In this document: in pieces, positions 13,112-46,919 of the stretch
Layout of the letters: every line of letters starts with the position of its first letter
How positions within the stretch are numbered: position 1 is the first letter of the stretch
Origin: Escherichia coli
Lineage (GTDB): Bacteria; Pseudomonadota; Gammaproteobacteria; Enterobacterales; Enterobacteriaceae
Direction: 5' to 3' (one strand)
NCBI RefSeq assembly: GCF_030013595.1
Contig: NZ_CP122768.1
Length of the DNA: 64,000 nucleotides
The notes under the pieces: generated by a model
Databases searched by the model: none
What the model was told of the DNA's origin: nothing
What the model saw: only the letters and a program-made list of their open reading frames with translations
Position numbers and translations under genes: made by a program

Positions 13112-13411
13112 AAAAATTCCTTAATACTGATAACTTGGCGCACTATACACACGTTCCTGAAGAAAGCTATAGTTTTTTGATGGGGTTGAAGATGGCTGGA
13201 TGTCTAAAATAAACATTGCTTCATATGTTCAACTATGCGTTAATGATTGCGTCGGTTTGAAGAACAGACGATATACGAAGTAGTTTACTAAAGCAGTTCT
13301 CATTTCAGGTGTTATTCACTTATTCCTTCTTTGAGTCTCTCCAATTAAGTACGAAGTCGTTTCTGTTATGCAAACCATTTATGCCGAAAGGCTCAAGTTA
13401 AGGAATGTAGA

Positions 13412-13627
13412 ATGTCAAATAAAATGACTGGTTTAGTAAAATGGTTTAACGCTGATAAAGGTTTCGGCTTTATTTCTCCTGTTGATGGTAGTAAAGATGT
13501 GTTTGTGCATTTTTCTGCGATTCAGAATGATAATTATCGAACCTTATTTGAAGGTCAAAAGGTTACCTTCTCTATAGAGAGTGGTGCTAAAGGTCCTGCA
13601 GCAGCAAATGTCATCATTACTGATTAA
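13412..13627 (+). CDS. cspB: Cold shock protein CspB
   Basis: 71 aa [38 protein letters not shown]..., RNP motifs. Confidence 0.9.
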
Positions 13628-13917
13628 AATTCATCGCTCGTCTGTATACGATAACGAAGAAGGCTGATGCCTGAGTAGAGATACGGACAGAGTAGTGAAT
13701 ATTGGATTTCTTTAATAAAAATTAAGGAGGTCCAATACATGAAACAATGGTCAGCATATTTGGCAAAATCTTAATCAGGAAAAGTATGCTAACCATTGTG
13801 GTGAAGTGCAGGTTTGCTGCATGAATAGTTTTACAGCAGAAGCTAACTGCTGGCATGGCAAAACAAAGTGCGTAAGTGGATGACTCCCACAAAAAGCACC
13901 ACAATCTCAAACCCGCT

Positions 13918-15935: not shown

Positions 15936-16296
15936 GGTAATATTAAATCGGAACATTTACATCGCGGAATGTAAAATTTAAATAAAAAGGACTCTTCCAT
16001 GAGCCAAAATTCCTGAAATCTTAAGGGTAAGATAAAAGGTCTTAATCAGAATGACACGTTTTATTAATAAATAAAGCTATTCTTTCATTGCTGTGTTTTT
16101 CTTTACAAAAGTAATCCTTGCTATGGGTGGTTAATCATGCGTTAATGGTGTTCTGGTTTGTTACAAATTTATCTGAAGCAGTCATTGTTATAATTTTATT
16201 ATTTGTACCTCTTGAGATTTCCTTGTTGGTTTTTCTCTCTGATATTTTTTTCGGACCATTCTGCCCAAGGGCTAATTTCTTCAAAAGGTAATAATT

Positions 16297-16509
16297 ATGT
16301 CTAACAAAATGACTGGTTTAGTAAAATGGTTTAACCCTGAAAAAGGTTTTGGTTTCATCACGCCGAAAGATGGCAGCAAAGATGTGTTTGTCCATTTCTC
16401 AGCAATTCAGAGCAACGATTTCAAAACATTAACTGAGAATCAGGAAGTTGAATTTGGTATTGAGAACGGACCTAAAGGTCCTGCCGCTGTTCATGTAGTG
16501 GCGCTTTGA
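16297..16509 (+). CDS. cspI: Cold shock protein CspI
   Basis: 70 aa [43 protein letters not shown]... Confidence 0.9.
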
Positions 16510-16780
16510 GGTAGACAATATTACAAACCATATTCACTTTAGATGCCCGTGTTGTCATGGTTCCCAGTATAGAACATCATCTTTTGATGTTTCTGACATG
16601 AATCCTTTCGGGGCAAAATGTATCTTTTGTAAATCAATGATGATTACATTTGATAATATTTCACAATACTTAAATGCCAGCCGTCTGTCGTTGGATTTAA
16701 AAAAGTGAAAATGAAGGCTCCTTCGGGAGCTTTTTGGCTTGGTGTCTATTCGATGGATACTCACATACTACGGTAACATC

Positions 16781-19143: not shown

Positions 19144-22824
<3,681 letters not shown>

Positions 22825-22844
<20 letters not shown>

Positions 22845-24144
22845 TCTCCCGCATATTGCCAGCATGGCCTTTAATGAGCCGCTGATGCTTGAACCCGCCT
22901 ATGCGCGGGTTTTCTTTTGTGCGCTTGCAGGCCAGCTTGGGATCAGCCGCCTGACGGATGCGGTGTCCGGCGACAGCCTGACTGCCCAGGAGGCACCCGC
23001 GACGCTGGCATTATCCGGTGATGATGACGGACCACGACAGGCCCGCAGTTATCAGGTCATGAACGGCATCGCCGTGCTGCCGGTGTCCGGCACGCTGGTC
23101 AGCCGGACGCGGGCGCTGCAGCCGTACTCGGGGATGACCGGTTACAACGGCATTATCGCCCGTCTGCAACAGGCTGCCAGCGACCCGATGGTGGACGGCA
23201 TTCTGCTCGATATGGACACACCGGGCGGAATGGTGGCGGGAGCATTTGACTGCGCTGACATCATCGCCCGTGTGCGTGACATAAAGCCGGTATGGGCGCT
23301 GGCCAACGACATGAACTGCAGTGCAGGTCAGCTGCTTGCCAGTGCCGCCTCCCGGCGTCTGGTCACGCAGACCGCACGGACAGGCTCCATCGGCGTCATG
23401 ATGGCTCACAGTAATTACGGCGCTGCGCTGGAGAAACAGGGCGTGGAAATCACGCTGATTTACAGCGGCAGCCATAAGGTGGATGGCAACCCCTACAGCC
23501 ATCTTCCGGATGACGTCCGGGAGACACTGCAGTCCCGGATGGATGCAACCCGCCGGATGTTTGCGCAGAAGGTGTCGGCATATACCGGCCTGTCCGTGCA
23601 GGCTGTGCTGGATACCGAGGCTGCAGTGTACAGCGGTCAGGAGGCCATTGATGCCGGACTGGCTGATGAACTTGTCAACAGCACCGATGCGATCACCGTT
23701 ATGCGTGATGCACTGGATGCACGTAAATCCCGTCTCTCAGGAGGGCGAATGACCAAAGAGACTCAATCAACAACTGTTTCAGCCACTGCTTCGCAGGCTG
23801 ACGTTACTGACGTGGTGCCAGCGACGGAGGGCGAAAACGCCAGCGCGGCGCAGCCGGACGTGAACGCGCAGATCACCGCTGCGGTTGCGGCAGAAAACAG
23901 CCGCATTATGGGGATCCTCAACTGTGTGGAGGCTCACGGACGCGAAGAACAGGCCCGCGTGCTGGCAGAAACCCCCGGTATGACCGTGGAAACGGCCCGC
24001 CGCATTCTGGCCGCAGCACCACAGAGTGCACAGGCGCGCAGTGACACTGCGCTGGATCGTCTGATGCAGGGGGCACCGGCACCGCTGGCTGCAGGTAACC
24101 CGGCATCTGATGCCGTTAACGATTTGCTGAACACACCAGTGTAA
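22825..24144 (+). CDS. C: Capsid assembly protease C
   Basis: GTG after AGGAGGAG gives 439 aa MTAELRNLPHIASMAFNEPLMLEP..., lambda gpC. Confidence 0.9.
23749..24144 (+). CDS. nu3: Scaffold protein Nu3 (in-frame internal start within C)
   Basis: Internal ATG in the C frame giving MTKETQSTTVSATASQADVTDVV... as in lambda Nu3. Confidence 0.7.
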   Translation: MTKETQSTTVSATASQADVTDVVPATEGENASAAQPDVNAQITAAVAAENSRIMGILNCVEAHGREEQARVLAETPGMTVETARRILAAAPQSAQARSDTALDRLMQGAPAPLAAGNPASDAVNDLLNTPV

Positions 24145-24153
24145 GGGATGTTT

Positions 24154-24486
24154 ATGACGAGCAAAGAAACCTTTACCCATTACCAGCCGCTGGGCAACAG
24201 TGACCCGGCTCATACCGCAACCGCGCCCGGCGGATTGAGTGCGAAAGCGCCTGCAATGACCCCGCTGATGCTGGACACCTCCACCCGTAAGCTGGTTGCG
24301 TGGGATGGCACCACCGACGGTGCTGCCGTTGGCATTCTGGCGGTTGCTGCTGACCAGACCAGCACCACACTGATGTTCTACAAGTCCGGCACGTTCCGTT
24401 ATGAGGATGTGCTCTGGCCGGAGGCTGCCAGCGACGAGACGAAAAAACGGACCGCGTTTGCCGGAACGGCAATCAGCATCGTTTAA
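24154..24486 (+). CDS. D: Head decoration protein D
   Basis: [33 protein letters not shown]..., lambda gpD. Confidence 0.9.
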
Positions 24487-24541
24487 CCTTACCCTTCATC
24501 ACTAAAGGCCGCCTGTGCGGCTTTTTTTATGGGATTTTTTT

Positions 24542-25567
24542 ATGTCGATGTACACAACCGCCCAGCTGCTGGCGGCAAATGAGAAGAAATTTAAGTTTGA
24601 TCCGCTGTTTCTGCGTCTCTTTTTCCGTGAGAGCTATCCCTTCACCACGGAGAAAGTCTATCTCTCACAAATTCCGGGACTGGTAAACATGGCGCTGTAC
24701 GTTTCGCCGATTGTTTCCGGTGAGGTTATCCGCTCCCGTGGCGGCTCCACCTCTGAATTTACACCGGGATATGTCAAGCCGAAGCATGAGGTGAATCCGC
24801 AGATGACCCTGCGTCGCCTGCCGGATGAAGATCCGCAGAATCTGGCGGACCCGGCTTACCGCCGCCGTCGCATCATCATGCAGAACATGCGAGACGAAGA
24901 GCTGGCCATTGCTCAGGTCGAAGAGATGCAGGCAGTTTCTGCTGTGCTTAAGGGCAAATACACCATGACCGGTGAAGCCTTCGATCCGGTTGAGGTGGAT
25001 ATGGGCCGCAGTGCGGCGAACAACATCACACAGTCCGGTGGTACGGAGTGGAGCAAGCGTGACAAGTCCACGTATGACCCGACCGACGATATCGAAGCCT
25101 ATGCGCTGAACGCCAGCGGAGTGGTGAATATCATCGTGTTTGATCCGAAAGGCTGGGCGCTGTTCCGTTCCTTCAAAGCCGTCAGGGAGAAGCTGGATAC
25201 CCGTCGCGGCTCTCATTCCGAGCTGGAGACAGCGGTAAAAGACCTGGGCGAAGCGGTGTCCTATAAGGGGATGTATGGCGATACGGCGATCGTCGTGTAT
25301 TCCGGACAGTACGTGGAAAACGACGTCAAAAAGAACTTCCTTCCGGACAACACGATGGTGCTGGGGAACACTCAGGCACGCGGTCTGCGCACCTATGGCT
25401 GCATTCAGGATGCGGACGCACAGCGCGAAGGTATTAACGCCTCTGCCCGCTACCCGAAAAACTGGGTGACCACCGGCGATCCGGCGCGTGAGTTCACCAT
25501 GATTCAGTCAGCACCGCTGATGCTGCTGGCTGACCCTGATGCGTTCGTGTCCGTACAACTGGCGTAA
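24542..25567 (+). CDS. E: Major capsid protein E
   Basis: 341 aa MSMYTTAQLLAANEKKFKFDPLFLRLFFRESYPFTTEKVYL..., lambda gpE. Confidence 0.95.
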   Translation: MSMYTTAQLLAANEKKFKFDPLFLRLFFRESYPFTTEKVYLSQIPGLVNMALYVSPIVSGEVIRSRGGSTSEFTPGYVKPKHEVNPQMTLRRLPDEDPQNLADPAYRRRRIIMQNMRDEELAIAQVEEMQAVSAVLKGKYTMTGEAFDPVEVDMGRSAANNITQSGGTEWSKRDKSTYDPTDDIEAYALNASGVVNIIVFDPKGWALFRSFKAVREKLDTRRGSHSELETAVKDLGEAVSYKGMYGDTAIVVYSGQYVENDVKKNFLPDNTMVLGNTQARGLRTYGCIQDADAQREGINASARYPKNWVTTGDPAREFTMIQSAPLMLLADPDAFVSVQLA

Positions 25568-25608
25568 TCATGGCCCTTCGGGGCCATTTTCTCTCTGTGG
25601 AGGAGTCC

Positions 25609-26004
25609 ATGACGAAAGATGAACTGATTGCCCGTCTTCAGGTGCTGGGTGAGCAACTGAACCGTGATGTCAGCCTGACGGGGACGAAAGAAGAACTGGT
25701 GCTCCGTGTGGCAGAGCTGGAAGAGGAGCTTGATGACACGGATGACGCTGCCGGTCAGGACACATCTGTCAGCCCGGAAAATGCGCTGACCGGACATGAA
25801 AATGAGGTGGTATCAGCGCAGCCGGATACCGTGACTGATACGGCTGATCTGGTCACGGTTGTGGCACTGGTGACGCTGCATACTGATGCACTTCACGCCA
25901 CGCGGGATGAGGCTGTGGCATTTGTGCTGCCGGGAACGGCGTTCCGTGTCTCTGCCGGTGTGTCAGCTGAAATGACAGAGCGCGGCCTGGCCAGAATGCA
26001 ATAA
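25609..26004 (+). CDS. FI: DNA packaging protein FI
   Basis: MTKDELIARLQVLGEQLNRDVSLTGTKEELVLRVAELEEEL..., lambda gpFI. Confidence 0.85.
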   Translation: MTKDELIARLQVLGEQLNRDVSLTGTKEELVLRVAELEEELDDTDDAAGQDTSVSPENALTGHENEVVSAQPDTVTDTADLVTVVALVTLHTDALHATRDEAVAFVLPGTAFRVSAGVSAEMTERGLARMQ

Positions 26005-26015
26005 CGGGAGGCGCT

Positions 26016-26369
26016 GTGGCTGATTTCGATAACCTGTTCGATGCTGCCATTGCCCGCGCCGATGAAACGATACGCGGGTACATGGGAACGTCAGCCACCA
26101 TGACATCCGGTGAGCAGTCCGGTGCTGTGATACGTGGTGTTTTTGATGACCCTGAAAATATCAGCTATGCCGGACAGGGCGTGCGCGTTGAAGGCTCCAG
26201 CCCGTCCCTGTTTGTCCGGACTGATGATGTGCGGCAGCTGCGGCGCGGCGACACGCTGACCATCGGTGAGGAAAACTTCTGGATAGACCGGATTTCGCCG
26301 GATGATGGCGGAAGCTGTCATCTCTGGCTTGGGCGGGGCGTACCGCCTGCCGTTAACCGTCGCCGCTGA
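26016..26369 (+). CDS. FII: Head-tail connector FII
   Basis: 117 aa MADFDNLFDAAIARADETIRGYMGTSA..., lambda gpFII. Confidence 0.9.
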   Translation: MADFDNLFDAAIARADETIRGYMGTSATMTSGEQSGAVIRGVFDDPENISYAGQGVRVEGSSPSLFVRTDDVRQLRRGDTLTIGEENFWIDRISPDDGGSCHLWLGRGVPPAVNRRR

Positions 26370-26380
26370 AAGGGGGATGT

Positions 26381-26959
26381 ATGGCCATAAAAGGTCTTGA
26401 GCAGGCCGTTGAAAACCTCAGCCGTATCAGCAGAACGGCGGTGCCCGGTGCCGCCGCAATGGCCATTAACCGCGTTGCTTCATCCGCGATATCGCAGTCG
26501 GCGTCACAGGTTGCCCGTGAGACAAAGGTACGCCGGAAACTGGTAAAGGAAAGGGCCAGGCTGAAAAGGGCCACGGTCAAAAATCCGCAGGCCAGAATCA
26601 GGGTTAACCGGGGGGATTTGCCCGTAATAAAGCTGGGTAACGCGCGGATTGTCCTGTCCCGACGCAGGCGTCGTAAAAAGGGGCAGCGTTCAGCCCTGAA
26701 AGGTGGCGGCAGCGTGCTTGTGGTGGGAAACCGTCGTATTCCCGGCGCGTTTATTCAGCAACTGAAAAATGGCCGCTGGCATGTCATGCAGCGTGTGGCC
26801 GGGAAAAATCGTTACCCCATTGATGTGGTGAAAATCCCGATGGCGGTGCCGCTGACCACGGCGTTTAAACAGAATATTGAGCGGATACGGCGTGAGCGTC
26901 TTCCGAAAGAGCTGGGCTATGCGCTGCAGCATCAACTGAGGATGGTAATAAAGCGATGA
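26381..26959 (+). CDS. Z: Tail completion protein Z
   Basis: 192 aa, lambda gpZ-like. Confidence 0.9.
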   Translation: MAIKGLEQAVENLSRISRTAVPGAAAMAINRVASSAISQSASQVARETKVRRKLVKERARLKRATVKNPQARIRVNRGDLPVIKLGNARIVLSRRRRRKKGQRSALKGGGSVLVVGNRRIPGAFIQQLKNGRWHVMQRVAGKNRYPIDVVKIPMAVPLTTAFKQNIERIRRERLPKELGYALQHQLRMVIKR

Positions 26960-27351
26960 AACATACTGAACTCCGAGCAGCCGTACTGGATGCACTGGAG
27001 AAGCATGACACCGGGGCGACGCTTTTTGATGGTCGCCCCGCTGTTTTTGATGAGGAAGATTTTCCGGCAATTGCCGTTTATCTCACCGGCGCTGAATACA
27101 CGGGCGAAGAGCTGGACAGCGATACCTGGCAGGCGGAGCTGCATATTGAAGTTTTCCTGCCTGCTCAGGTGCCGGATTCAGAGCTGGATGCGTGGATGGA
27201 GTCCCGGATTTATCCGGTGATGAGTGATATCCCGGCACTGTCAGATTTGATCACCAGTATGGTGACCAGCGGCTATGACTATCGGCGCGACGATGATGCG
27301 GGCCTGTGGAGTTCAGCCGATCTGACTTATGTCATTACCTATGAAATGTGA
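26956..27351 (+). CDS. U: Tail terminator protein U
   Basis: 131 aa, lambda gpU-like. Confidence 0.9.
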
Positions 27352-27358
27352 GGACGCT

Positions 27359-28099
27359 ATGCCTGTACCAAATCCTGTAATGCCGGTGAAAGGGGCCGGG
27401 ACCACCCTGTGGGTTTATAAGGGGAGTGGTGACCCTTATGCGAATCCGCTTTCAGACGTTGACTGGTCGCGTCTGGCAAAAGTTAAAGACCTGACGCCCG
27501 GCGAACTGACCGCTGAGTCTTATGACGACAGCTATCTCGATGATGAAGATGCAGACTGGACTGCGACCGGGCAGGGGCAGAAATCTGCCGGAGATACCAG
27601 CTTCACGCTGGCGTGGATGCCCGGAGAGCAGGGGCAGCAGGCGCTGCTGGCGTGGTTTAATGAAGGCGATACCCGTGCCTATAAAATCCGCTTCCCGAAC
27701 GGCACGGTCGATGTGTTCCGTGGCTGGGTCAGCAGTATCGGTAAGGCGGTGACGGCGAAGGAAGTGATTACCCGCACGGTGAAGGTCACCAATGTGGGAC
27801 GTCCGTCGATGGCAGAAGATCGCAGCACGGTGACGGCGACAACCGGCATGACGGTGACACCCGCCAGTGCTTCCGTAGTGAAAGGGCAGAGCACCACGCT
27901 GACCGTGGCATTCCAGCCGGATGGCGCAACCGACAAGAGCTTCCGTGCGGTGTCTGCGGATAAAACAAAAGCCACCGTGTCGGTCAGTGGTATGACCATC
28001 ACCGTGAAAGGTGTTGCTGCAGGCAAGGTCAACATTCCGGTCGTATCCGGTAATGGTGAGTTTGCTGCGGTTGCAGAAATCAACGTCACCGCCAGTTAA
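27359..28099 (+). CDS. V: Major tail protein V
   Basis: [45 protein letters not shown]..., lambda gpV with C-terminal Ig-like domain. Confidence 0.9.
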
Positions 28100-28114
28100 T
28101 CCGGAGAGTCAGCG

Positions 28115-28537
28115 ATGTTCCTGAAAACCGAATCATTTGAACATAACGGTGTGACCGTCACGCTTTCTGAACTGTCAGCCCTGCAGCGTATTGAGCATCT
28201 CGCCCTGATGAAACGGCAGGCAGAACAGGCGGAGTCAGACAGCAACCGGAAGTTTACTGTGGAAGACGCCATCAGAACCGGTGCTTTTGTGGTGGCGATG
28301 TCCCTGTGGCATAACCATCCGCAGAAGACAAAGCTGCCTTCCATGAATGAAGCCGTTAAACAGATTGAGCAGGAAGTGCTTACCACCTGGCCCACAGAGG
28401 CAATTTCTCATGCTGAAAACGTGGTGTACCGGCTGTCCGGTATGTATGAGTTTGTGGTGAATGATGCTCCTGAACAGGCAGAGGACGCCGGGCCTGCAGA
28501 GCCTGTTTCTGCGGGAAAGTGTTCGACGGTGAGCTGA
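28115..28537 (+). CDS. G: Tail assembly chaperone G
   Basis: 140 aa MFLKTESFEHNGVTVTLSELSALQRIEHLALMKRQAEQ..., lambda gpG. Confidence 0.9.
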   Translation: MFLKTESFEHNGVTVTLSELSALQRIEHLALMKRQAEQAESDSNRKFTVEDAIRTGAFVVAMSLWHNHPQKTKLPSMNEAVKQIEQEVLTTWPTEAISHAENVVYRLSGMYEFVVNDAPEQAEDAGPAEPVSAGKCSTVS

Positions 28538-28953
28538 GTTTTGCCCTGAAACTGGCGCGTGAGATGGGGCGACCCGACTGGCGCGCCATGCTTGCCGGGA
28601 TGTCATCCACGGAGTATGCCGACTGGCACCGCTTTTACAGTACCCATTATTTTCATGATGTTCTGCTGGATATGCACTTTTCCGGGCTGACGTACACCGT
28701 GCTCAGCCTGTTTTTCAGCGATCCGGAGATGCATCCGCTGGATTTCAGTCTGCTGAACCGGCGCGAGGCTGACGAAGAGCCTGAAGATGATGTGCTGATG
28801 CAGAAAGCGGCAGGGCTTGCCGGAGGCGTTCGTTTTGGCCCGGACGGGAATGAAGTTATCCCCGCTTCCCCGGATGTGGCGGACATGACGGAGGATGACG
28901 TAATGCTGATGACAGTATCAGAAGGGATCGCAGGAGGAGTCCGGTATGGCTGA
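28115..28953 (+). CDS. T: Tail assembly protein G-T, made by programmed -1 frameshift at G GGA AAG (28513..28519)
   Basis: Slippery heptamer GGGAAAG near the end of G; the -1 frame continues as VFDGELSFALKLAREMGRPDW... to 28953. Confidence 0.75.
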
Positions 28954-31525
28954 ACCGGTAGGCGATCTGGTCGTTGATTTAAGTCTGGATGCGGCCAGAT
29001 TTGACGAGCAGATGGCCAGAGTCAGGCGTCATTTTTCCGGTACGGAAATTGATGCGAAAAAAACAGCGGCAGTCGTTGAACAGTCGCTGAGCCGACAGGC
29101 GCTGGCTGCACAGAAAGCGGGGATTTCCGTCGGGCAGTATAAAGCCGCCATGCGTATGCTGCCTGCACAGTTCACCGACGTGGCCACGCAGCTTGCAGGC
29201 GGGCAAAGCCCGTGGCTGATCCTGCTGCAACAGGGTGGTCAGGTTAAGGACTCCTTCGGCGGGATGATCCCCATGTTCAGGGGGCTTGCCGGTGCGATCA
29301 CCCTGCCGATGGTGGGGGCCACCTCGCTGGCGGTGGCGACCGGTGCGCTGGCGTATGCCTGGTATCAGGGCAACTCAACCCTGTCCGATTTCAACAAAAC
29401 GCTGGTCCTTTCCGGCAATCAGGCGGGACTGACGGCAGATCGTATGCTGGTCCTGTCCAGAGCCGGGCAGGCGGCAGGGCTGACGTTTAACCAGACCAGC
29501 GAGTCACTGACGGCGCTGGTGAATGCCGGTGTGCGTGGTGGTGAGCAGTTTGAGGCGATCAGCCAGAGTGTGGCGCGTTTCTCCTCTGCATCCGGCGTGG
29601 AGGTGGACAAGGTCGCTGAAGCCTTCGGGAAGCTGACCACAGACCCGACGTCGGGACTGACAGCGATGGCACGTCAGTTCCATAACGTGACGGCGGAGCA
29701 GATTGCGTATGTTGCTCAGTTGCAGCGTTCCGGAGATGAAGCCGGGGCATTGCAGGCGGCGAACGAGGCCGCAACGAAAGGGTTTGATGACCAGACCCGC
29801 CGCCTGAAAGAGAACATGGGCACGCTGGAGACCTGGGCAGACAGGACAGCACGGGCATTCAAATCCATGTGGGATTCGGTGCTGGATATTGGTCGCCCGG
29901 ACACTGCCCAGGGAATGCTGGAGAAAGCAGAAAAGGCTTTTGATGAGGCGGACAAAAAATGGCAGTGGTATCAGAGCCGGAGCCACCGGCGCGGTAAAAC
30001 CTCAGCATTTCTTGCCAATCTCCGGGGAGCATGGGAGGACAGAGCGAATGCGCAACTTGGGCTTTCAGCCGCCACGTTGCAGGCCGATCTTGAAAAGGCC
30101 AGAGAGATGGCAGCAAAGGACTGGGCCGAGTCTGAGGCATCACGGCTGAAATATACCGAAGAGGCGCAGAAGGCTTACGAACGCCTGCAGACGCCGCTGG
30201 AGAAATATACCGCCCGTCAGGAAGAACTGAACAAGGCACTGAAGGACGGGAAAATTCTGCAGGCAGATTACAACACGCTGATGGCGGCGGCGAAAAAGGA
30301 CTATGAAGCGACGCTGAAAAAGCCGAAACAGTCCGGCGTGAAGGTGTCTGCGGGCGATCGTCAGGAAGACAGTGCTCATGCTGCCCTGCTGACGCTTCAG
30401 GCAGAACTCCGGACGCTGGAGAAGCATGCCGGAGCAAATGAGAAAATCAGCCAGCAGCGCCGGGATTTGTGGAAGGCGGAGAGTCAGTTCGCGGTACTGG
30501 AGGAGGCGGCGCAACGTCGCCAGCTGTCTGCACAGGAGAAATCCCTGCTGGCGCATAAAGATGAGACGCTGGAGTACAAACGCCAGCTGGCTGCACTTGG
30601 CGACAAGGTTACGTATCAGGAGCGCCTGAACGCGCTGGCGCAGCAGGCGGATAAATTCGCACAGCAGCAACGGGCAAAACGGGCCGCTATTGATGCGAAA
30701 AGCCGGGGGCTGACTGACCGGCAGGCAGAACGGGAAGCCACGGAACAGCGCCTGAAGGAACAGTATGGCGATAATCCTCTGGCGCTGAATAACGTCATGT
30801 CAGAGCAGAAAAAGACCTGGGCGGCTGAAGACCTGCTTCGCGGGAACTGGATGGCAGGCCTCAGGTCCGGCTGGAGCGAGTGGAAAGAGAGTGCCACGGA
30901 CAGTATGTCGCAGGTTAAAAGTGCAGCCACGCAGACCTTTGATGGTATTGCGCAGAATATGGCGGCGATGCTGACCGGCAGTGAACAGAACTGGCGCAGC
31001 TTCACCCGCTCCGTGCTGTCCATGATGACAGAAATTCTGCTTAAGCAGGCAATGGTGGGGATTGTCGGGAGTATCGGCAGCGCTATTGGCGGGGCTGTTG
31101 GTGGCGGCGCATCCGCGTCAGGCGGTACAGCCATTCAGGCCGCTGCGGCGAAATTCCATTTTGCAACCGGAGGATTTACGGGAACCGGCGGCAAATATGA
31201 GCCAGCGGGGATTGTTCACCGTGGTGAATTTGTCTTCACAAAGGAGGCAACCAGCCGGATTGGCGTGGGGAATCTCTACCGGCTGATGCGCGGCTATGCC
31301 ACCGGTGGTTATGTCGGTACACCGGGCAGTCTGGCTGACAGCCGGTCGCAGGCGTCCGGGACGTTTGAGCAGAATAACCATGTGGTGATTAACAACGACG
31401 GCACGAACGGGCAGATAGGTCCGGCTGCTCTGAAGGCGGTGTATGACATGGCCCGCAAGGGTGCCCGTGATGAAATTCAGACACAGATGCGTGATGGTGG
31501 ACTGTTCTCCGGAGGTGGACGATGA
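28946..31525 (+). CDS. H: Tail tape measure protein H
   Basis: 859 aa, lambda gpH-like. Confidence 0.95.
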   Translation: MAEPVGDLVVDLSLDAARFDEQMARVRRHFSGTEIDAKKTAAVVEQSLSRQALAAQKAGISVGQYKAAMRMLPAQFTDVATQLAGGQSPWLILLQQGGQVKDSFGGMIPMFRGLAGAITLPMVGATSLAVATGALAYAWYQGNSTLSDFNKTLVLSGNQAGLTADRMLVLSRAGQAAGLTFNQTSESLTALVNAGVRGGEQFEAISQSVARFSSASGVEVDKVAEAFGKLTTDPTSGLTAMARQFHNVTAEQIAYVAQLQRSGDEAGALQAANEAATKGFDDQTRRLKENMGTLETWADRTARAFKSMWDSVLDIGRPDTAQGMLEKAEKAFDEADKKWQWYQSRSHRRGKTSAFLANLRGAWEDRANAQLGLSAATLQADLEKAREMAAKDWAESEASRLKYTEEAQKAYERLQTPLEKYTARQEELNKALKDGKILQADYNTLMAAAKKDYEATLKKPKQSGVKVSAGDRQEDSAHAALLTLQAELRTLEKHAGANEKISQQRRDLWKAESQFAVLEEAAQRRQLSAQEKSLLAHKDETLEYKRQLAALGDKVTYQERLNALAQQADKFAQQQRAKRAAIDAKSRGLTDRQAEREATEQRLKEQYGDNPLALNNVMSEQKKTWAAEDLLRGNWMAGLRSGWSEWKESATDSMSQVKSAATQTFDGIAQNMAAMLTGSEQNWRSFTRSVLSMMTEILLKQAMVGIVGSIGSAIGGAVGGGASASGGTAIQAAAAKFHFATGGFTGTGGKYEPAGIVHRGEFVFTKEATSRIGVGNLYRLMRGYATGGYVGTPGSLADSRSQASGTFEQNNHVVINNDGTNGQIGPAALKAVYDMARKGARDEIQTQMRDGGLFSGGGR

Positions 31526-31851
31526 AAACCTTCCGCTGGAAAGTGAAACCCGGTATGGATGTGGCTTCGGCCCCTTCTGTAAGAAAGGTGCGCTTTGGTG
31601 ATGGCTATTCCCAGCGAGCGCCTGCCGGGCTGAATGCCAACCTGAAAACGTACAGCGTGACGCTTTCTGTCCCCCGTGAGGAGGCCACGGTACTGGAGTC
31701 GTTTCTGGAAGAGCACGGGGGCTGGAAAGCCTTTCTGTGGACGCCGCCTTATGAGTGGCGGCAGATAAAGGTGACCTGCGCAAAATGGTCGTCGCGGGTC
31801 AGTATGCTGCGTGTTGAGTTCAGCGCAGAGTTTGAACAGGTGGTGAACTGA
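31522..31851 (+). CDS. M: Tail tip protein M
   Basis: 109 aa MKTFRWKVKPGMDVASAPSVRKVRFGDGYSQRAP..., lambda gpM. Confidence 0.9.
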   Translation: MKTFRWKVKPGMDVASAPSVRKVRFGDGYSQRAPAGLNANLKTYSVTLSVPREEATVLESFLEEHGGWKAFLWTPPYEWRQIKVTCAKWSSRVSMLRVEFSAEFEQVVN

Positions 31852-32549
31852 TGCAGGATATCCGGCAGGAAACACTGAATGAATGCACCCGTGCGGAGCA
31901 GTCGGCCAGCGTGGTGCTCTGGGAAATCGACCTGACAGAGGTCGGTGGAGAACGTTATTTTTTCTGTAATGAGCAGAACGAAAAAGGTGAGCCGGTCACC
32001 TGGCAGGGGCGACAGTATCAGCCGTATCCCATTCAGGGGAGTGGTTTTGAACTGAATGGCAAAGGCACCAGTACGCGCCCCACGCTGACGGTTTCTAACC
32101 TGTACGGTATGGTCACCGGGATGGCGGAAGATCTGCAGAGTCTGGTCGGCGGAACGGTGGTCCGGCGTAAGGTTTACGCCCGTTTTCTGGATGCGGTGAA
32201 CTTCGTCAACGGAAACAGTGACGCCGATCCGGAGCAGGAGGTGATCAGCCGCTGGCGCATCGAGCAGTGCAGCGAACTGAGCGTGGTGAGTGCCTCCTTT
32301 GTACTGTCCACGCCGACGGAAACGGATGGCGCTGTTTTTCCGGGACGTATCATGCTGGCCAACACCTGCACCTGGACCTATCGCGGTGACGAGTGCGGTT
32401 ATAGCGGTCCGGCTGTCGCGGATGAATATGACCAGCCAACGTCCGATATCACGAAGGATAAATGCAGCAAATGCCTGAGCGGTTGTAAGTTCCGCAATAA
32501 CGTCGGCAACTTTGGCGGCTTCCTTTCCATTAACAAACTTTCGCAGTAA
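31851..32549 (+). CDS. L: Tail tip protein L
   Basis: 232 aa, lambda gpL-like with C-terminal Cys cluster. Confidence 0.9.
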   Translation: MQDIRQETLNECTRAEQSASVVLWEIDLTEVGGERYFFCNEQNEKGEPVTWQGRQYQPYPIQGSGFELNGKGTSTRPTLTVSNLYGMVTGMAEDLQSLVGGTVVRRKVYARFLDAVNFVNGNSDADPEQEVISRWRIEQCSELSVVSASFVLSTPTETDGAVFPGRIMLANTCTWTYRGDECGYSGPAVADEYDQPTSDITKDKCSKCLSGCKFRNNVGNFGGFLSINKLSQ

Positions 32550-32554
32550 ATCCC

Positions 32555-33298
32555 ATGACACAGACAGAATCAGCGATTCTGGCGCACGCCCGGCGATGTG
32601 CGCCAGCGGAGTCGTGCGGCTTCGTGGTGAGAGCGCCGGAGGGGGAACGATATTTTCCCTGCGTGAATATTTCCGGTGAGCCGGAGGATTATTTCCGGAT
32701 GGCTCCGGAGGACTGGCTGCAGGCAGAGATGCAGGGTGAGATTATGGCACTGGTCCACAGTCATCCCGGTGGTCTGCCCTGGCTGAGTGAGGCTGACCGG
32801 CGGCTGCAGGTGCAGAGTGATTTGCCGTGGTGGCTGGTCTGCCGGGGGGCGATTCATAAGTTCCGCTGTGTGCCGCATCTCACCGGGCGGCGCTTTGAGC
32901 ACGGGGTGACGGACTGTTATACGCTGTTCCGCGATGCCTATCATCTTGCAGGTATCGATTTGCCGGATTTTTACCGACATGATGACTGGTGGAAATCAGG
33001 TCAGAATCTCTATCTGGATAATCTGGAGGCCACAGGGCTGTATCAGGTGCCGTTGTCAGCGGCGCAGCCGGGCGATGTGCTGCTGTGCTGTTTTGGTTCA
33101 TCGGTGCCGAATCATGCCGCCATTTACTGTGGTGACGGCAAGCTGCTGCACCATATTCCTGAACAACTGAGCAAACGAGAGAGGTATACCGACAAATGGC
33201 AGCGACGCACACACTCCCTCTGGCGTCACCAGGCATGGCACGCATCTGCCTTTACGGGGATTTACAACGATTTGTCCGCCGCATCGATCTGCGTGTGA
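32555..33298 (+). CDS. K: Tail assembly protein K
   Basis: 247 aa MTQTESAILAHARRCAPAESCGFVV... with JAB/MPN and NlpC/P60-like regions, lambda gpK. Confidence 0.9.
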   Translation: MTQTESAILAHARRCAPAESCGFVVRAPEGERYFPCVNISGEPEDYFRMAPEDWLQAEMQGEIMALVHSHPGGLPWLSEADRRLQVQSDLPWWLVCRGAIHKFRCVPHLTGRRFEHGVTDCYTLFRDAYHLAGIDLPDFYRHDDWWKSGQNLYLDNLEATGLYQVPLSAAQPGDVLLCCFGSSVPNHAAIYCGDGKLLHHIPEQLSKRERYTDKWQRRTHSLWRHQAWHASAFTGIYNDLSAASICV

Positions 33299-33837
33299 AA
33301 ACGGGGGCCGAAGCTATCCGGGCGCTGGCCATGCAGATCCCGGCGTTTCGTCAGAAGCTGAGCGACGGCTGGTATCAGGTACGCATTGCCGGGCGTGATA
33401 CAGGTGAAACGGAATTATCAGCCCGTCTTAATGAACCGCTGGCAAATGGTGCTGTGATCCATATCGTGCCGCGTCTGGCAGGAGCCAAAAGTGGCGGTGT
33501 GTTTCAGGCTGTGCTGGGGGCGGCTGTTATGGCGGTTGCTATATGGATGCCGGGGGTAGGAATTATGGCGAGTAATCTGCTGTTTTCTCTCGGTGCCAGT
33601 ATGACGCTTGGCGGTGTTGCACAGATGCTGGCCCCTAAACCCAAAACCCCCCGCACACAGACAACGGATAACGGCAAACAGAATACGTATTTCTCCTCAC
33701 TGGATAACATGGTTGCCCAGGGCAATGTTCTGCCCGTTCTGTACGGTGAAATGCGCGTGGGGTCGCGGGTGGTTTCTCAGGAGATCAGCACGGCAGACGA
33801 AGGGGATGGTGGTCAGGTTGTGGTGATTGGTCGCTGA
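33196..33837 (+). CDS. I: Tail assembly protein I
   Basis: MAATHTLPLASPGMARICLYGDLQRF..., lambda gpI; start overlaps the 3' end of K. Confidence 0.85.
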   Translation: MAATHTLPLASPGMARICLYGDLQRFVRRIDLRVKTGAEAIRALAMQIPAFRQKLSDGWYQVRIAGRDTGETELSARLNEPLANGAVIHIVPRLAGAKSGGVFQAVLGAAVMAVAIWMPGVGIMASNLLFSLGASMTLGGVAQMLAPKPKTPRTQTTDNGKQNTYFSSLDNMVAQGNVLPVLYGEMRVGSRVVSQEISTADEGDGGQVVVIGR

Positions 33838-33897
33838 TACAACATGTTTTATGTGAAACCGCCTGCGGGCGGTTTTATCGTTTATGGAGCATGACGA

Positions 33898-36800
33898 ATG
33901 GGTAAAGGCAGCAGTAAGGGGCATACCCCGCGCGAAGCGAAGGACAACCTGAAATCCACGCAGCTGCTGAGTGTGATTGATGCCATCAGCGAAGGGCCGG
34001 TTGAAGGTCCGGTGGATGGATTAAAAAGCGTGCTGCTGAACAGTACGCCAGTGCTGGACAGTGAGGGGAATACCAACATCTCCGGCGTCACGGTGGTGTT
34101 CCGGGCCGGTGAGCAGGAGCAGACACCGCCGGAGGGATTTGAATCCTCCGGCTCCGAGACGGTGCTGGGTACGGAAGTGAAATACGACACGCCGATCACC
34201 CGGACCATCACGTCGGCAAACATTGACCGACTGCGTTTTACCTTCGGCGTGCAGGCACTGGTGGAAACCACCTCAAAGGGGGACAGGAATCCGTCGGAAG
34301 TCCGCCTGCTGGTTCAGATACAGCGTAACGGTGGCTGGGTGACGGAAAAAGACATCACCATTAAGGGCAAAACCACCTCGCAGTATCTGGCCTCGGTGGT
34401 GGTGGGTAACCTGCCGCCGCGCCCGTTCACTATACGGATGCGCAGGATGACGCCGGACAGCACCACAGACCAGCTGCAGAACAAAACGCTCTGGTCGTCA
34501 TACACCGAAATCATCGATGTGAAACAGTGCTACCCGAACACGGCACTGGTCGGCGTGCAGGTGGACTCGGAGCAGTTCGGCAGCCAGCAGGTGAGCCGTA
34601 ATTATCATCTGCGCGGGCGTATTCTGCAGGTGCCGTCGAACTATAACCCGCAGACGCGGCAATACAGCGGTATCTGGGACGGAACGTTTAAGCCAGCATA
34701 CAGCAACAACATGGCCTGGTGTCTGTGGGATATGCTGACCCATCCACGCTACGGCATGGGGAAACGTCTTGGTGCGGCGGATGTGGACAAATGGGCGCTG
34801 TATGTCATCGGCCAGTACTGCGACCAGTCGGTGCCGGACGGCTTTGGCGGCACGGAGCCGCGCATCGCCTGTAATGCGTACCTGACCACACAGCGCAAGG
34901 CCTGGGATGTGCTCAGTGATTTCTGCTCGGCGATGCGCTGTATGCCGGTATGGAACGGGCAGACGCTGACGTTCGTGCAGGACCGACCGTCGGATAAGGT
35001 GTGGACCTATAACCGCAGTAATGTGGTGATGCCGGATGATGGCGCACCATTCCGCTACAGCTTCAGCGCCCTGAAAGACCGCCATAATGCCGTTGAGGTG
35101 AACTGGATTGACCCGGATAACGGCCAGGAGACGGCGACAGAGCTTGTGGAGGACTCGCAGGCCATTGCCCGTTACGGTCGTAACGTCACGAAGATGGATG
35201 CGTTTGGCTGTACCAGCCGGGGGCAGGCGCACCGCGCCGGGCTGTGGCTGATTAAAACAGAACTGCTGGAAACGCAGACCGTGGACTTCAGCGTGGGTGC
35301 CGAAGGGCTTCGCCATGTACCGGGCGATGTCATTGAAATCTGCGATGATGACTATGCCGGTATCAGCACCGGCGGGCGCGTGCTGGCGGTGAACAGCCAG
35401 ACCCGGACGCTGACGCTCGACCGTGAAATCACGCTGCCATCCTCCGGCACCACGCTGATAAGCCTGGTTGACGGAAGTGGCAATCCGGTCAGCGTGGAGG
35501 TCCAGTCCGTCACCGACGGCGTGAAGGTGAAAGTGAGCCGGGTTCCTGACGGCGTTGCCGAGTACAGCGTGTGGGGGCTGAAGCTGCCGACGCTGCGCCA
35601 GCGCCTGTTCCGCTGTGTGAGTATCCGTGAGAACGACGACGGTACGTATGCCATCACTGCAGTGCAGCATGTACCGGAGAAAGAAGCCATCGTGGATAAC
35701 GGGGCGCACTTTGACGGTAACCAGAGCGGCACGGTGAATGGTGTCACGCCGCCAGCAGTGCAGCATCTGACCGCAGAAGTCACCGCAGACAGCGGGGAAT
35801 ATCGGGTGCTGGCCCGCTGGGACACGCCGAAGGTGGTGAAGGGCGTGAGCTTCCTGCTTCGCCTGACCGTGGCAGCGGATGACGGCAGTGAGCGGCTGGT
35901 CAGCACGGCCCGGACGACGGAAACCACTTACCGCTTCACACAACTGGCTCTGGGGAACTACAGGCTGACAGTCCGGGCAGTAAATGCGTGGGGGCAGCAG
36001 GGCGATCCGGCGTCGGTATCGTTCCGGATTGCCGCACCGGCAGCGCCGTCGCGGATTGAGCTGACGCCGGGCTATTTTCAGATAACCGCCACGCCGCATC
36101 TTGCGGTTTATGATCCGACGGTACAGTTTGAGTTCTGGTTCTCGGAAAAGCGGATTGCGGATATCAGGCAGGTTGAAACCACAGCACGCTATCTTGGCAC
36201 GGCGCTGTACTGGATAGCCGCCAGTATCAATATCAAACCGGGCCATAATTATTATTTTTACGTTCGCAGTGTGAACACCGTTGGCAAATCGGCATTCGTG
36301 GAGGCTGTTGGTCAGCCGAGTGATGACGCATCCGGCTATCTGGATTTTTTCAAAGGCGAGATAGGGAAAACCCATCTGGCTCAGGAGCTGTGGACGCAGA
36401 TTGATAACGGTCAGCTTGCGCCTGACCTGGCTGAAATCAGGACGTCCATTACGGATGTCAGCAATGAAATCACACAGACCGTCAATAAGAAACTGGAAGA
36501 CCAGAGTGCAGCAATTCAGCAGATACAGCAGGTTCAGGTTGATACAAGTAATAACCTGAACAGCATGTGGGCTGTGAAGTTGCAGCAGATGCAGGACGGA
36601 CGCCTTTATATTGCGGGTATCGGTGCCGGTATTGAGAACACCCCCGACGGCATGCAGAGTCAGGTGCTGCTGGCGGCAGACAGGATTGCGATGATTAATC
36701 CTGCAAATGGCAACACAAAACCGATGTTTGTTGGTCAGGGTGATCAGATATTCATGAATGAAGTGTTCCTGAAATATCTGACGGCTCCCACCATTACCAG

Positions 36801-37377
36801 CGGCGGTAATCCTCCTGCATTTTCCCTGACACCGGACGGAAAGCTGACCGCTAAAAATGCAGATATCAGTGGCAGTGTGAATGCGAACGCCGGGACGCTC
36901 AACAACGTTACGATAAATGAAAACTGTCAGATTAAAGGGAAACTGTCAGCCAACCAGATTGAAGGCGATATTGTCAAAACAGTGGGTAAGGCTTTCCCGC
37001 GGGACTCCCGGGCACCGGAGCGGTGGCCATCAGGGACCATTACCGTCAGGATTTATGACGATCAGCCGTTTGACCGGCAGATTGTTATTCCGGCGGTGGC
37101 ATTCAGCGGTGCTAAACATGAGAGAGAGCATACTGATATTTACTCCTCATGCCGCCTGATAGTGAAGAAAAATGGTGCTGAAATTTATAACCGTACCGCG
37201 CTGGATAATACGCTGATTTACAGTGGTGTTATTGATATGCCAGCTGGTCACGGCCACATGACGCTGGAGTTTTCGGTGTCAGCATGGCTGGTAAATGACT
37301 GGTATCCCACAGCAAGTATCAGCGATTTGCTGGTTGTGGTGATGAAGAAAGCCACCGCAGGCATCAGTATCAGCTGA
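33898..37377 (+). CDS. J: Central tail fibre / host specificity protein J
   Basis: 1159 aa [54 protein letters not shown]..., lambda gpJ-like. Confidence 0.95.
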
Positions 37378-37396
37378 ATTTTATAACCCATATACG

Positions 37397-37420
37397 GGCG
37401 CCAGAAATGGCGCCTTTTTT
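37397..37420 (+). terminator. Rho-independent terminator between J and lom
   Basis: GGCGCC-AGAAAT-GGCGCC followed by TTTTTT. Confidence 0.6.
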
Positions 37421-37444
37421 ATTGCAGAAAAGCGAGAGGTAATT

Positions 37445-38044
37445 ATGCGTAAAGTTTGTGCAGCCATTTTGTCCACAGCCATCTGTCTGGCCGTATCCGG
37501 TGCGCCTGCATGGGCGTCTGAGCAGCAGGCCACACTGAGCGCAGGGTATCTTCATGCCCGTACGAACGCTCCCGGCAGCGATAATCTGAACGGGATTAAC
37601 GTGAAATACCGTTATGAGTTTACGGACACGCTGGGGCTGATTACGTCATTCAGTTATGCCAACGCTGAAGATGAGCAAAAAACGCATTACAGCGATACCC
37701 GCTGGCATGAAGATTCCGTGCGTAACCGCTGGTTCAGCGTAATGGCGGGGCCGTCTGTGCGCGTGAATGAATGGTTCAGCGTGTATGCGATGGCGGGTGT
37801 GGCTTACAGCCGTGTGTCGACTTTCTTCGGGGATTATCTCCGCGTAACTGACAACAAGGGGAAAACGCACGATGTGCTGACCGGAAGTGATGACGGTCGC
37901 CACAGCAACACGTCTCTGGCGTGGGGGGCTGGCGTGCAGTTTAACCCGACCGAATCCGTGGCCATTGATATTGCTTATGAAGGCTCCGGCAGTGGTGACT
38001 GGCGCACTGACGGTTTCATCGTGGGTGTCGGTTATAAATTCTGA
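37445..38044 (+). CDS. lom: Outer membrane protein Lom (Ail/Lom family)
   Basis: 199 aa [38 protein letters not shown]..., signal peptide plus beta-barrel. Confidence 0.9.
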
Positions 38045-38070
38045 TTAGCCAGGTAACACAGTGTTATGAC

Positions 38071-38097
38071 AGCCCGTCGGTTCAGGCGGGCTTTTTT
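38071..38097 (+). terminator. Rho-independent terminator after lom
   Basis: AGCCCG-TCGGTTCAG-GCGGGCT followed by TTTTTTG. Confidence 0.6.
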
Positions 38098-38102
38098 GTG
38101 GG

Positions 38103-41100
38103 GTGAATATGGCAGTAAAGATTTCAGGTGTACTGAAAGACGGCACAGGAAAACCGGTACAGAACTGCACAATCCAGCTGAAAGCAAAACGTAACAGCAC
38201 CACGGTGGTGGTGAACACGCTGGCCTCAGAAAATCCGGATGAAGCCGGGCGTTACAGCATGGACGTTGAGTACGGTCAGTACAGCGTTATTCTGTTGGTG
38301 GAAGGATTCCCGCCGTCACATGCCGGGACCATCACCGTGTATGAAGACTCCCGACCCGGTACGCTGAATGATTTTCTCGGTGCCATGACGGAGGATGATG
38401 CCCGGCCAGAGGCACTGCGCCGTTTTGAGCTGATGGTGGAAGAGGTGGCGCGTAACGCGTCCGCGGTGGCACAGAACACGGCAGCCGCGAAGAAGTCAGC
38501 CGGCGATGCCGGCACATCAGCCCGTGAGGCGGCAACCCATGCGACTGATGCTGCAGGCTCAGCACGCGCAGCCAGCACGTCAGCCGGACAGGCCGCGTCG
38601 TCGGCTCAGTCAGCGTCTTCCAGCGCAGGAACGGCATCAACAAAGGCCAGTGAAGCATCGAAAAGTGCTGCTGCTGCAGAGTCCTCAAAAAGCGCGGCAG
38701 CTACCAGTGCCAGTGCCGCGAAAACGTCAGAAACGAATGCCGCAGCGTCACAACAATCAGCAGCCACTTCTGCATCCACCGCGACCACGAAAGCGTCAGA
38801 AGCTGCCACCTCAGCCCGGGATGCGGCGGCCTCAAAAGAGGCAGCGAAATCATCAGAAACGAACGCATCCTCGAGCGCCAGTAGCGCAACTTCCTCGGCA
38901 ACGGCGGCAGGAAATTCCGCGAAGGCGGCAAAAACGTCCGAGACGAACGCTAAGTCTTCTGAGACGGCAGCGGGACAGAGCGCCTCAGCTGCGGCAGGCT
39001 CAAAAACAGCGGCTGCATCATCTGCCAGCGCCGCGTCAACAAGTGCCGGGCAGGCCTCAGCCAGTGCCACCGCCGCCGGAAAATCGGCAGAAAGCGCCGC
39101 ATCATCCGCTTCAACAGCCACAACGAAGGCTGGCGAAGCCACTGAACAGGCCAGCGCAGCAGCGAGTTCTGCTTCCGCAGCGAAGACATCCGAAACGAAC
39201 GCGAAAGCGTCGGAAACCAGCGCAGAATCCTCAAAAACGGCTGCCGCATCGTCAGCCAGTTCGGCGGCGTCATCGGCATCATCGGCGTCTGCTTCAAAAG
39301 ATGAGGCGACCAGACAGGCGTCAGCAGCGAAGGGCAGCGCCACGACAGCATCCACGAAGGCGACAGAGGCAGCTGGTAGTGCGACAGCGGCAGCTCAGAG
39401 CAAAAGTACGTCGGAATCTGCAGCAACGCGTGCCGAGACAGCAGCAAAACGGGCAGAGGATATTGCATCTGCCGTGGCGCTTGAGGATGCGAGCACGACG
39501 AAAAAGGGGATAGTACAGCTCAGCAGTGCGACCAACAGTACGTCTGAAACGCTGGCGGCAACGCCAAAGGCAGTAAAATCAGCCTATGACAATGCAGAGA
39601 AACGTCTGCAGAAAGACCAGAACGGCGCTGATATACCCGATAAGGGACGCTTCCTGAACAACATTAACGCGGTCAGTAAAACAGACTTTGCTGATAAGCG
39701 TGGTATGCGTTATGTGCGGGTTAACGCTCCTGCAGGTGCAACATCTGGAAAATATTACCCTGTTGTTGTTATGCGTTCTGCTGGCTCAGTAAGCGAACTG
39801 GCATCAAGGGTCATTATCACCACGGCAACGCGAACCGCAGGCGATCCGATGAATAACTGCGAGTTTAACGGATTTGTTATGCCTGGTGGCTGGACTGACA
39901 GGGGGCGTTATGCTTATGGAATGTTCTGGCAATATCAAAACAATGAACGAGCCATCCACTCAATAATGATGAGTAATAAGGGCGATGATTTGCGCTCTGT
40001 GTTCTATGTTGATGGCGCTGCTTTCCCTGTTTTTGCGTTTATCGAAGATGGCCTGTCAATATCCGCACCTGGTGCTGATCTCGTTGTTAATGATACGACC
40101 TATAAGTTTGGGGCAACAAATCCAGCGACTGAATGTATCGCGGCGGACGTTATCCTTGATTTTAAGAGTGGGCGTGGTTTTTATGAGTCTCATTCGTTAA
40201 TCGTTAACGATAATTTGTCGTGCAAAAAACTTTTTGCCACAGACGAAATTGTAGCGCGTGGTGGTAATCAGATTCGAATGATAGGTGGGGAGTATGGTGC
40301 ATTATGGCGTAATGATGGCGCTAAAACTTACCTGCTGCTTACCAATCAAGGTGATGTTTATGGTGGCTGGAATACATTAAGACCGTTTGCTATTGATAAC
40401 GCAACCGGCGAACTGGTTATTGGAACCAAACTGTCCGCAAGTCTGAACGGTAATGCATTAACAGCAACAAAGCTGCAAACGCCAAGACGGGTTTCTGGTG
40501 TTGAGTTTGATGGTTCCAGAGATATTACTTTAACCGCCGCGCATGTGGCTGCTTTTGCCAGAAGGGCAACGGATACATATGCCGATGCGGATGGTGGCGT
40601 TCCCTGGAATGCCGAATCAGGTGCTTACAATGTCACCCGCTCTGGCGACAGCTATATTCTGGTTAACTTCTATACCGGAGTCGGAAGTTGCCGGACCCTG
40701 CAGATGAAGGCGCATTACAGAAATGGTGGTCTGTTCTACCGTTCTTCAAGAGACGGTTATGGTTTTGAGGAAGACTGGGCAGAAGTTTATACCTCGAAAA
40801 ATCTTCCACCAGAAAGCTACCCAGTCGGCGCACCAATCCCGTGGCCATCAGATACCGTTCCGTCTGGTTATGCCCTGATGCAGGGGCAGACTTTTGACAA
40901 ATCTGCTTACCCGAAACTTGCAGCCGCTTATCCGTCAGGCGTGATCCCTGATATGCGTGGCTGGACGATTAAGGGCAAACCTGCCAGTGGTCGGGCCGTA
41001 TTGTCTCAGGAACAGGACGGCATTAAATCGCATACCCACAGCGCCAGCGCATCCAGTACGGATTTGGGGACGAAAACCACATCGTCGTTTGATTACGGCA

Positions 41101-41459: not shown

Positions 41460-42034
41460 TGGCATTCAGAATGAGTGAACAACCACGGACCATAAAAATT
41501 TATAATCTGCTGGCCGGAACTAATGAATTTATTGGTGAAGGTGATGCATATATTCCGCCTCATACAGGTCTGCCAGCAAACAGTACCGATATTGCACCGC
41601 CAGATATTCCGGCTGGCTTCGTGGCTGTTTTCAACAGTGATGAGTCATCGTGGCATCTCGTTGAAGATCATCGGGGTAAAATGGTTTATGACGTGGCTTC
41701 CGGCGACGCGTTATTTATTTCTGAACTCGGTCCGTTACCGGAAAATGTTACCTGGTTATCGCCGGAAGGGGAGTTTCAGAAGTGGAACGGTACAGTCTGG
41801 GTGAAGGATACGGAAGCAGAAAAACTGTTCCGGATCCGGGAGGCGGAAGAAACAAAAAACAGCCTGATGCAGGTAGCCAGTGAGCATATAGCGCCACTTC
41901 AGGATGCTGTAGATCTGGAAATCGCAACGGAGGAAGAAACCTCATTGCTGGAAGCCTGGAAAAAGTATCGGGTGTTGCTGAACCGTGTTGATACATCAAC
42001 TGCACAGGATATTGAATGGCCAGCACTGCCGTAG
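41459..42034 (+). CDS. tfa: Tail fibre assembly protein Tfa
   Basis: 191 aa [42 protein letters not shown]...; start overlaps stf stop. Confidence 0.85.
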
Positions 42035-45340: not shown

Positions 45341-45429
45341 ATCCTCCATCCCTTCTCTTACCGGAGAGGGGATTTTTTATTCATATAACAAAACATGCAG
45401 CTTGCCATATTTAAATTTAAGGAATTGTT

Positions 45430-46890: not shown

Positions 46891-46898
46891 AAAAAGCA

Positions 46899-46919
46899 AT
46901 GCCGCCATCGGCGGCATTC
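46899..46919. terminator. Bidirectional terminator hairpin between ydfI and ydfZ
   Basis: AATGCCGCC-ATC-GGCGGCATT. Confidence 0.5.

Follow-up and report, generated by a model that had tools for sequence, protein, structure and literature searches.

The 64,000-nt stretch of Escherichia coli DNA analysed here (the window, to which all positions refer) carries at 28513-28519 a G GGA AAG heptamer that is almost certainly a programmed −1 ribosomal frameshift signal of the lambda G/GT type, located in a lambdoid prophage and yielding gpG together with a 279-aa gpGT. The site is the already known lambda G/GT frameshift, present in a lambda/434-like prophage. In this analysis the assignment is based on the anatomy of the sequence, on homology, on synteny and on the conservation of a shift-prone site at this place in relatives; the slip, how often it occurs and what the proteins do would be as experiments on lambda indicate. 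No feature of the sequence speaks against the assignment. The features of the region are the following:

27359-28099, + strand: gene V, major tail tube protein (Pfam Phage_TTP_12 at 1.4e-70, and Big_2; synteny with lambda).
28103-28106, + strand: GGAG Shine-Dalgarno sequence for G; the homologous bases are the annotated ribosome binding site in phage 434.
28115-28537, + strand: gene G, tail assembly chaperone gpG, the 140-aa 0-frame product (ORF with ATG start).
28471-28473, + strand: last −1 (T) frame stop before the heptamer, which bounds the shift window on its 5′ side; from 28474 on this frame is open.
28513-28519, + strand: slippery heptamer G GGA AAG, putative −1 shift site (phase, identity with lambda and 434, conservation).
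28519-28953, + strand: T reading frame, 144 codons plus stop (GTG ORF; Pfam Phage_tail_T).
28527-28597, + strand: candidate RNA fold, with an outer stem (28527-28534/28590-28597) and a GC-rich inner hairpin (28554-28568/28573-28587).
28535-28537, + strand: G stop codon TGA, which bounds the shift window on its 3′ side (26 diverse sequences all have GAGCTGA).
28946-31525, + strand: gene H, tape measure protein (Pfam TMP_2 at 1e-70; Tape_meas_lam_C at 3.2e-21).

The major tail gene V and the tape-measure gene H flank two overlapping open reading frames, of which the downstream one is read in the −1 frame relative to the upstream one. The gene order is V-G-T-H, as in lambda, and the ATG of H overlaps the end of T by 8 nt. 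The + strand around the site reads ...GCC TGT TTC TGC GGG AAA GTG TTC GAC GGT GAG CTG AGT..., and base 28513 is the third codon position of the ORF 28115..28537, giving the phase GC[G GGA AAG]. An earlier note on this DNA had placed the heptamer at this position and in this phase, and both are seen on the + strand. It had also counted six codons to the G stop. This is a loose match: AAG is followed by the five sense codons TGT TCG ACG GTG AGC (CSTVS), and the TGA at 28535-28537 is itself the sixth codon. The −1 frame starting from 28519 (GTG TTC GAC ...) is open for 144 codons to the TGA at 28951-28953, in line with the end at 28953 given by the note. Since a −1 frame stop is present at 28471-28473, the frame change must fall within 28474-28537; in relatives of the PhiR12_4 and Stx types the −1 frame opens just 5-6 codons before the heptamer. 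The predicted gpGT, join(28115..28519,28519..28953), consists of G residues 1-135 ending in ...SAGK followed by VFDGELSF..., 279 aa in total.

The frequency of the heptamer in the window was considered as evidence and dropped. GGGAAAG is present in 13 copies, whereas dinucleotide shuffling gives 7.9 ± 3.0 and yields at least 13 in 9 of 100 cases; a count of 13 against about 8 expected is uninformative alone, and a test of ORF architecture was used instead. Each X XXY YYZ heptamer on either strand of the 64-kb window was checked for three properties: an in-phase upstream stretch of 100 or more open codons, 0-frame termination within 30 codons, and a −1 frame open for 100 codons or more. The heptamer at 28513 was the only one in the window that passed.

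Both reading frames belong to the lambda families. G matches Pfam Phage_TAC_2 (PF06894) at 5.6e-59 and the NCBIfam equivalog TIGR01674 phage_lambda_G with 214 bits against a cutoff of 74, and the T frame matches Pfam Phage_tail_T (PF06223) at 2e-14 and the equivalog TIGR01715 phage_lam_T with 189 bits against a cutoff of 77; G and T both pass the NCBIfam equivalog and Pfam gathering thresholds. A single profile of 290 positions, PHROG 32165, is matched by G over positions 1-142 and by T over positions 140-285. As one profile spans G and then T, the proteins behind this family must have been GT fusions. In the PDB, searched by sequence with the 279-aa GT, no relative of solved structure was found.

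Comparison of the 839-nt G-T region with lambda (J02459, 9711-10549) revealed 97.7% identity, and between 28497 and 28583, the 87 nt around the site, there are no differences from lambda, phage 434 or phage Turner. The heptamer, its phase, the five codons to the G stop, the lengths of G (140 codons) and T (144 codons), the order V-G-T-H and the overlap of T with the start of H are all the same as in lambda. The lambda G/GT arrangement described in the earlier note is therefore reproduced in heptamer, phase, stop distance and T length, as well as in the equivalog assignments and the placement between V and H. The differences from lambda amount to 19 nt in G-T, 14 of them in G, and to six amino acid changes (L59V, Q73K, M74L, N117D and T122A in G, D70E in T); H has 853 aa in lambda and 859 aa here, and lambda is a free phage, whereas the element in the window is a chromosomal prophage at the Qin locus. 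The closest deposited phage is 434 (OL657226). Its G-T is 99.5% identical, the 4 differences in 839 nt are all in G, and its record already annotates a joined GT CDS (tape measure chaperone).

The chromosomal setting is the Qin prophage locus (window 1-42700), with flanking sequence at 44000-64000. The left part of the window contains dicB, the DicF RNA, relBE, hokD, cspF, cspB, cspI, lysis genes and nohA; in mid-window, between nohA and tfaQ, comes a lambda/434-type module that is complete for head and tail and reaches from terminase to J. After J there are lom, a tail fibre gene, tfaQ and pinQ, and the right part of the window covers ydfJ to the mar operon. The Qin of K-12 is a defective prophage and presumably has no lambda/434-type head-tail module.

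This location raises the question of whether the site is a relic, i.e. whether the sequence is intact in a defective prophage whose tail genes are never expressed, so that the site is no longer under selection here. The identity of the locus (dicB/DicF, relBE, hokD, cspB/F/I, nohA) with that of the defective K-12 prophage favors such a view, as do an ORF of IS-type transposase in the early region and the pseudogenes present there in a 99.7%-identical genome. However, the head and tail ORFs, terminase through J, have all kept their full length, as has the tail fibre gene; G-T departs from that of infectious phage 434 at just 4 of its 839 bases, and at least 80% of the window interval 20000-40000 is present in 2,979 of 5,426 complete E. 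coli genomes. We consider a relic unlikely; moreover, the question bears on the current use of the element and not on what the element is.

Conservation of the site was analysed in two sets of relatives. A sample from IMG/VR comprised 80 loci encoding T relatives with 71-100% aa identity, of which 78 were evaluable; these are the closest relatives of a lambda-type query and not independent samples. A slippery X XXY YYZ heptamer was found at the homologous position in all 78, as GGGAAAG in 77 and as AAAAAAG in the remaining one, with five codons to the G stop in every case. The next codon varies among these relatives (TGT, TCT, CAT, TAT, CGT, CCT), and several upstream contexts occur. In one of the IMG/VR loci (IMGVR_UViG_2695420576_000005, ~1440-1520) the G frame is open for just 26 codons upstream of the slip site, which suggests a nonsense or frameshift lesion in G with the heptamer and T intact.

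The second set consisted of 16 phage loci, and a shift-prone heptamer is kept at the homologous position in every one of them, with a Lys codon as the A-site codon in 16 out of 16. G GGA AAG, five codons before the G stop, is found in lambda, 434, Turner and PhiR12_4, and A AAA AAG at the same distance in Stx1 phage, CP-1639 and VT1-Sakai. N15, HK225, phi80, mEp213 and LLS have G GAA AAG, also with five codons to the G stop, and in Klebsiella Kp4865-4, Fels-1 and Ayreon the same heptamer lies one codon from the stop; Vibrio phage HY01 has C CCA AAA, one codon from the stop as well. Strictly taken, the G GAA AAG of distant relatives is not of the X XXY YYZ form; it carries the label of a −1 slip site in the N15 and LLS records. 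In the N15/phi80/HK225/mEp213/LLS group the genes are homologous to those in the window and the slip site has the same position relative to the G stop, whereas the heptamer differs and T has ~115 codons with 56-63% aa identity to the window T. The earlier note had proposed checking whether the slippery site is mutated in an alignment, and had called the site conserved. In both sets the site is kept (78/78 and 16/16). Judged from the sequences compared, position and slipperiness are what is conserved in the more distant relatives, and to this extent the description holds; it does not extend to the exact heptamer.

The locus of Vibrio phage HY01 (MT366580, locus positions 210-1048) deserves a separate comment. 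It encodes a distant T homologue with 31% aa identity, and in the record "major tail protein V" is followed by two CDS named "hypothetical protein" and then by an adjoining CDS of the same name. The C CCA AAA heptamer is one codon before the stop of the first of the two, and the pair is probably an unannotated frameshift of the G-T type.

The comparison with relatives also bears on whether T could be an ordinary separate gene, translated from the GTG at 28519 or from an internal ATG, with the heptamer being incidental. An ORF caller, as the earlier note anticipated, reports T as a separate 144-aa ORF: the ORF lister gives 28519..28953 with a GTG start, PGAP calls the same 144-aa CDS from GTG, and several phage records contain a stand-alone T CDS from various starts. 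However, there is no Shine-Dalgarno sequence at a usable distance before 28519, and the first T-frame codon across relatives is GTG, GTC, GTA, GCA, GCC or GCG, a non-start codon in most clades. At T codon 16 the N15/phi80 clade has TTC in place of ATG, and the T "starts" given in the records vary from one to another and truncate the most conserved T motif. The flanks of the heptamer vary and the heptamer itself does not, the PHROG family covers G and T as one protein, and in lambda T is made only as gpGT according to published work (PMC5009743). With neither a usable Shine-Dalgarno sequence nor a conserved start codon, independent initiation of T is rejected, and we give a separate T gene almost no credence.

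A change of frame during transcription, in which RNA polymerase slips on the G3/A3 runs and leaves some mRNAs one base short, would give an equal outcome, the G-T fusion, and can be dismissed as highly improbable: the A AAA AAG variants do have a six-A run, but runs of three bases are much too short for appreciable slippage by E. coli RNA polymerase, and what is conserved is the X XXY YYZ pattern in its phase and not the length of a run. Other systems do make use of transcriptional slippage (PMC5009743), but the same review treats lambda GT as ribosomal frameshifting, distinct from it, and the lambda shift rate responds to modification of tRNA-Lys (PMC3296357).

The lambda G/GT −1 frameshift is attributed in PMC5009743 to work by Levin, Hendrix and Casjens (1993) and by Xu, Hendrix and Duda (2004, 2013, 2014). 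G_GGA_AAG is the lambda G/GT slip site (PMC3296357, Table 1; PMC7618472) and has an intrinsic tendency to shift in E. coli (PMC5009743). In lambda, reading stays in the 0 frame in ~96% of cases (PMC3296357), so that the shift occurs in ~4%, and the gpG:gpGT ratio of ~30:1 is critical (PMC5009743). The lambda fusion protein, made at this low and fixed ratio to gpG, is needed for the assembly of tails (PMC5009743; PMC3296357). The mnm5s2U modification of tRNA-Lys tunes the lambda shift rate (PMC3296357), and hypomodified tRNA-Lys results in a higher shift rate and a lower phage yield (PMC3296357; PMC7618472).

By analogy, most ribosomes translating the window gene would pass G GGA AAG without a change of frame and terminate at 28535-28537, producing the 140-aa gpG. 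A small fraction would slip back by one base on the heptamer, the P-site tRNA-Gly re-pairing from GGA to GGG and the A-site tRNA-Lys(UUU) from AAG to AAA, and would continue in the −1 frame to 28953 to give the 279-aa fusion gpGT; the T frame would be translated solely as the C-terminal part of this fusion. In lambda the tape measure protein is the binding partner of the G parts, and the tail tube protein that of the T domain (PMC5009743). From homology with lambda, the G parts would be expected to coat the tape measure protein H, and the T domain of the rare gpGT would recruit V, the tail tube protein, for polymerisation of the tube around H; gpG and gpGT would then depart and be absent from the virion. 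Mature lambda virions contain neither gpG nor gpGT (PMC5009743). Mass spectrometry of virions, which had been suggested as a check, would consequently be negative even if the interpretation is right, and an induced or infected lysate is needed.

The E. coli dnaX signal resembles the window site in being a tandem −1 slip in which the A-site codon AAG is read by tRNA-Lys(UUU), and its heptamer, A AAA AAG, is that of the Stx-phage relatives of the window G-T. In dnaX the shift occurs at ~50%, is assisted by two strong stimulators (an upstream SD-like element and a downstream stem-loop) and gives a truncated product. At the window site, in contrast, a rate of a few percent would be expected, and the product is an extended one. 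The sequence 10-14 nt upstream of the heptamer contains no SD-like stimulator of the dnaX kind, and the upstream context is not conserved.

Stimulated −1 signals pair the slippery site with a 3′ stem-loop or pseudoknot at a spacing of 5-9 nt. Analysis of the sequence downstream of the heptamer revealed a candidate RNA fold. For the 81 nt after the heptamer (28520-28600) the calculated MFE is −38.3 kcal/mol (z = −3.8); the predicted outer stem begins 7 nt after the heptamer and encloses the GC-rich hairpin. A like architecture was predicted independently for N15 (z −4.3), phi80 (−3.8), PhiR12_4 (−3.3) and Klebsiella Kp4865-4 (−4.6). In Stx1 the predicted architecture is weak (z −2.0), and the fold was looked for in Fels-1 and Ayreon and is absent from both. 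Among 26 distinct sequences 91.7% of cells are paired, against 27-44% with slid partners, a comparison in which the fold was derived from the same sequences that were used to assess it. Most stem pairs are invariant among the sequences compared; there is one compensatory pair in the outer stem, G-C to A-U, in the N15/phi80 clade, and the same clade lengthens the stem via synonymous GCC to GCT and GGG to GGC changes.

Synonymous diversity, computed for 47 representative sequences, has its minimum for the whole of G-T at ~28505-28600 (observed/expected 0.36-0.75), and this minimum coincides with the predicted fold. The same region encodes the most conserved T peptide, with the motif LAREMGRPDWRAMLAGM, and its first 18 nt are dual-coding. 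In a control with synonymous recoding, z was −1.5 to −2.4, and the native sequences were more stable than only 92-99% of the recodings, a modest excess. A scan of 27-30 kb of the window gave the lowest MFE for the windows containing the fold (z −3.8 and −4.0), and z values that are similar or lower elsewhere (−4.9 at 28656, −4.1 at 27996). The RNAalifold covariation term was just −1.43 kcal/mol; this program picked another 5′ helix and recovered the inner hairpin. An Rfam scan of the whole window found no families at the slip site.

The small covariation and the equally low z elsewhere in 27-30 kb mean that a structure is not claimed. It is possible, and we offer it tentatively as the less probable outcome, that the predicted ~70-nt fold is a conserved element tuning the frameshift and common to G-T genes of the lambda, N15, phi80 and Klebsiella types. 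If so, it would help to set the gpG:gpGT ratio of ~30:1, and a structural stimulator of the lambda G-T shift would be a small point on how a fixed chaperone ratio is encoded. Levin and co-workers reportedly observed in 1993 an effect of the downstream sequence, with no clear structure proposed; in the literature examined, mainly reviews, we found no description of a downstream stimulator or fold for lambda G-T.

The biology of the site contains nothing new, as it is a further copy of a very well-studied recoding signal; the prophage module carrying this signal is in over half of complete E. coli genomes. The value of the assignment is in annotation. In a 98.4%-identical RefSeq chromosome PGAP gives G and T as two separate CDS, and the correct description is G plus a joined gpGT CDS, as opposed to the two genes reported by ORF callers and PGAP.

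Several minor observations were made elsewhere in the window. In the early/accessory region of the prophage, a typical site for an anti-phage gene, an ORF at 4616-6103 (+) encodes a 495-aa P-loop ATPase with the RefSeq name "Sll1717 family"; PADLOC gave a weak match only for this ORF (PDC-M28C, 4e-5). A match to the Rfam sok antitoxin RNA is located at 6207-6373 (+), with 111 bits against a gathering score of 59, and is flanked by this ATPase ORF and by an IS1202-like transposase ORF (6452-7792). No hok-sized ORF (at least 40 aa) was found beside the match, which is separate from hokD near 9691-9846. It may be an orphan, or what is left of a hok/sok locus that the IS has interrupted. Rfam cspA-thermoregulator matches precede the prophage cspB and cspI at 13251-13643 (159 bits) and 16152-16536 (116 bits), both on the + strand. 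Matches above the Rfam gathering score were also obtained for the DicF antisense RNA at 476-527 (−), for IS009 at 41802-42000 (+) and for the Hfq-binding RNA STnc560 at 52939-53152 (+).
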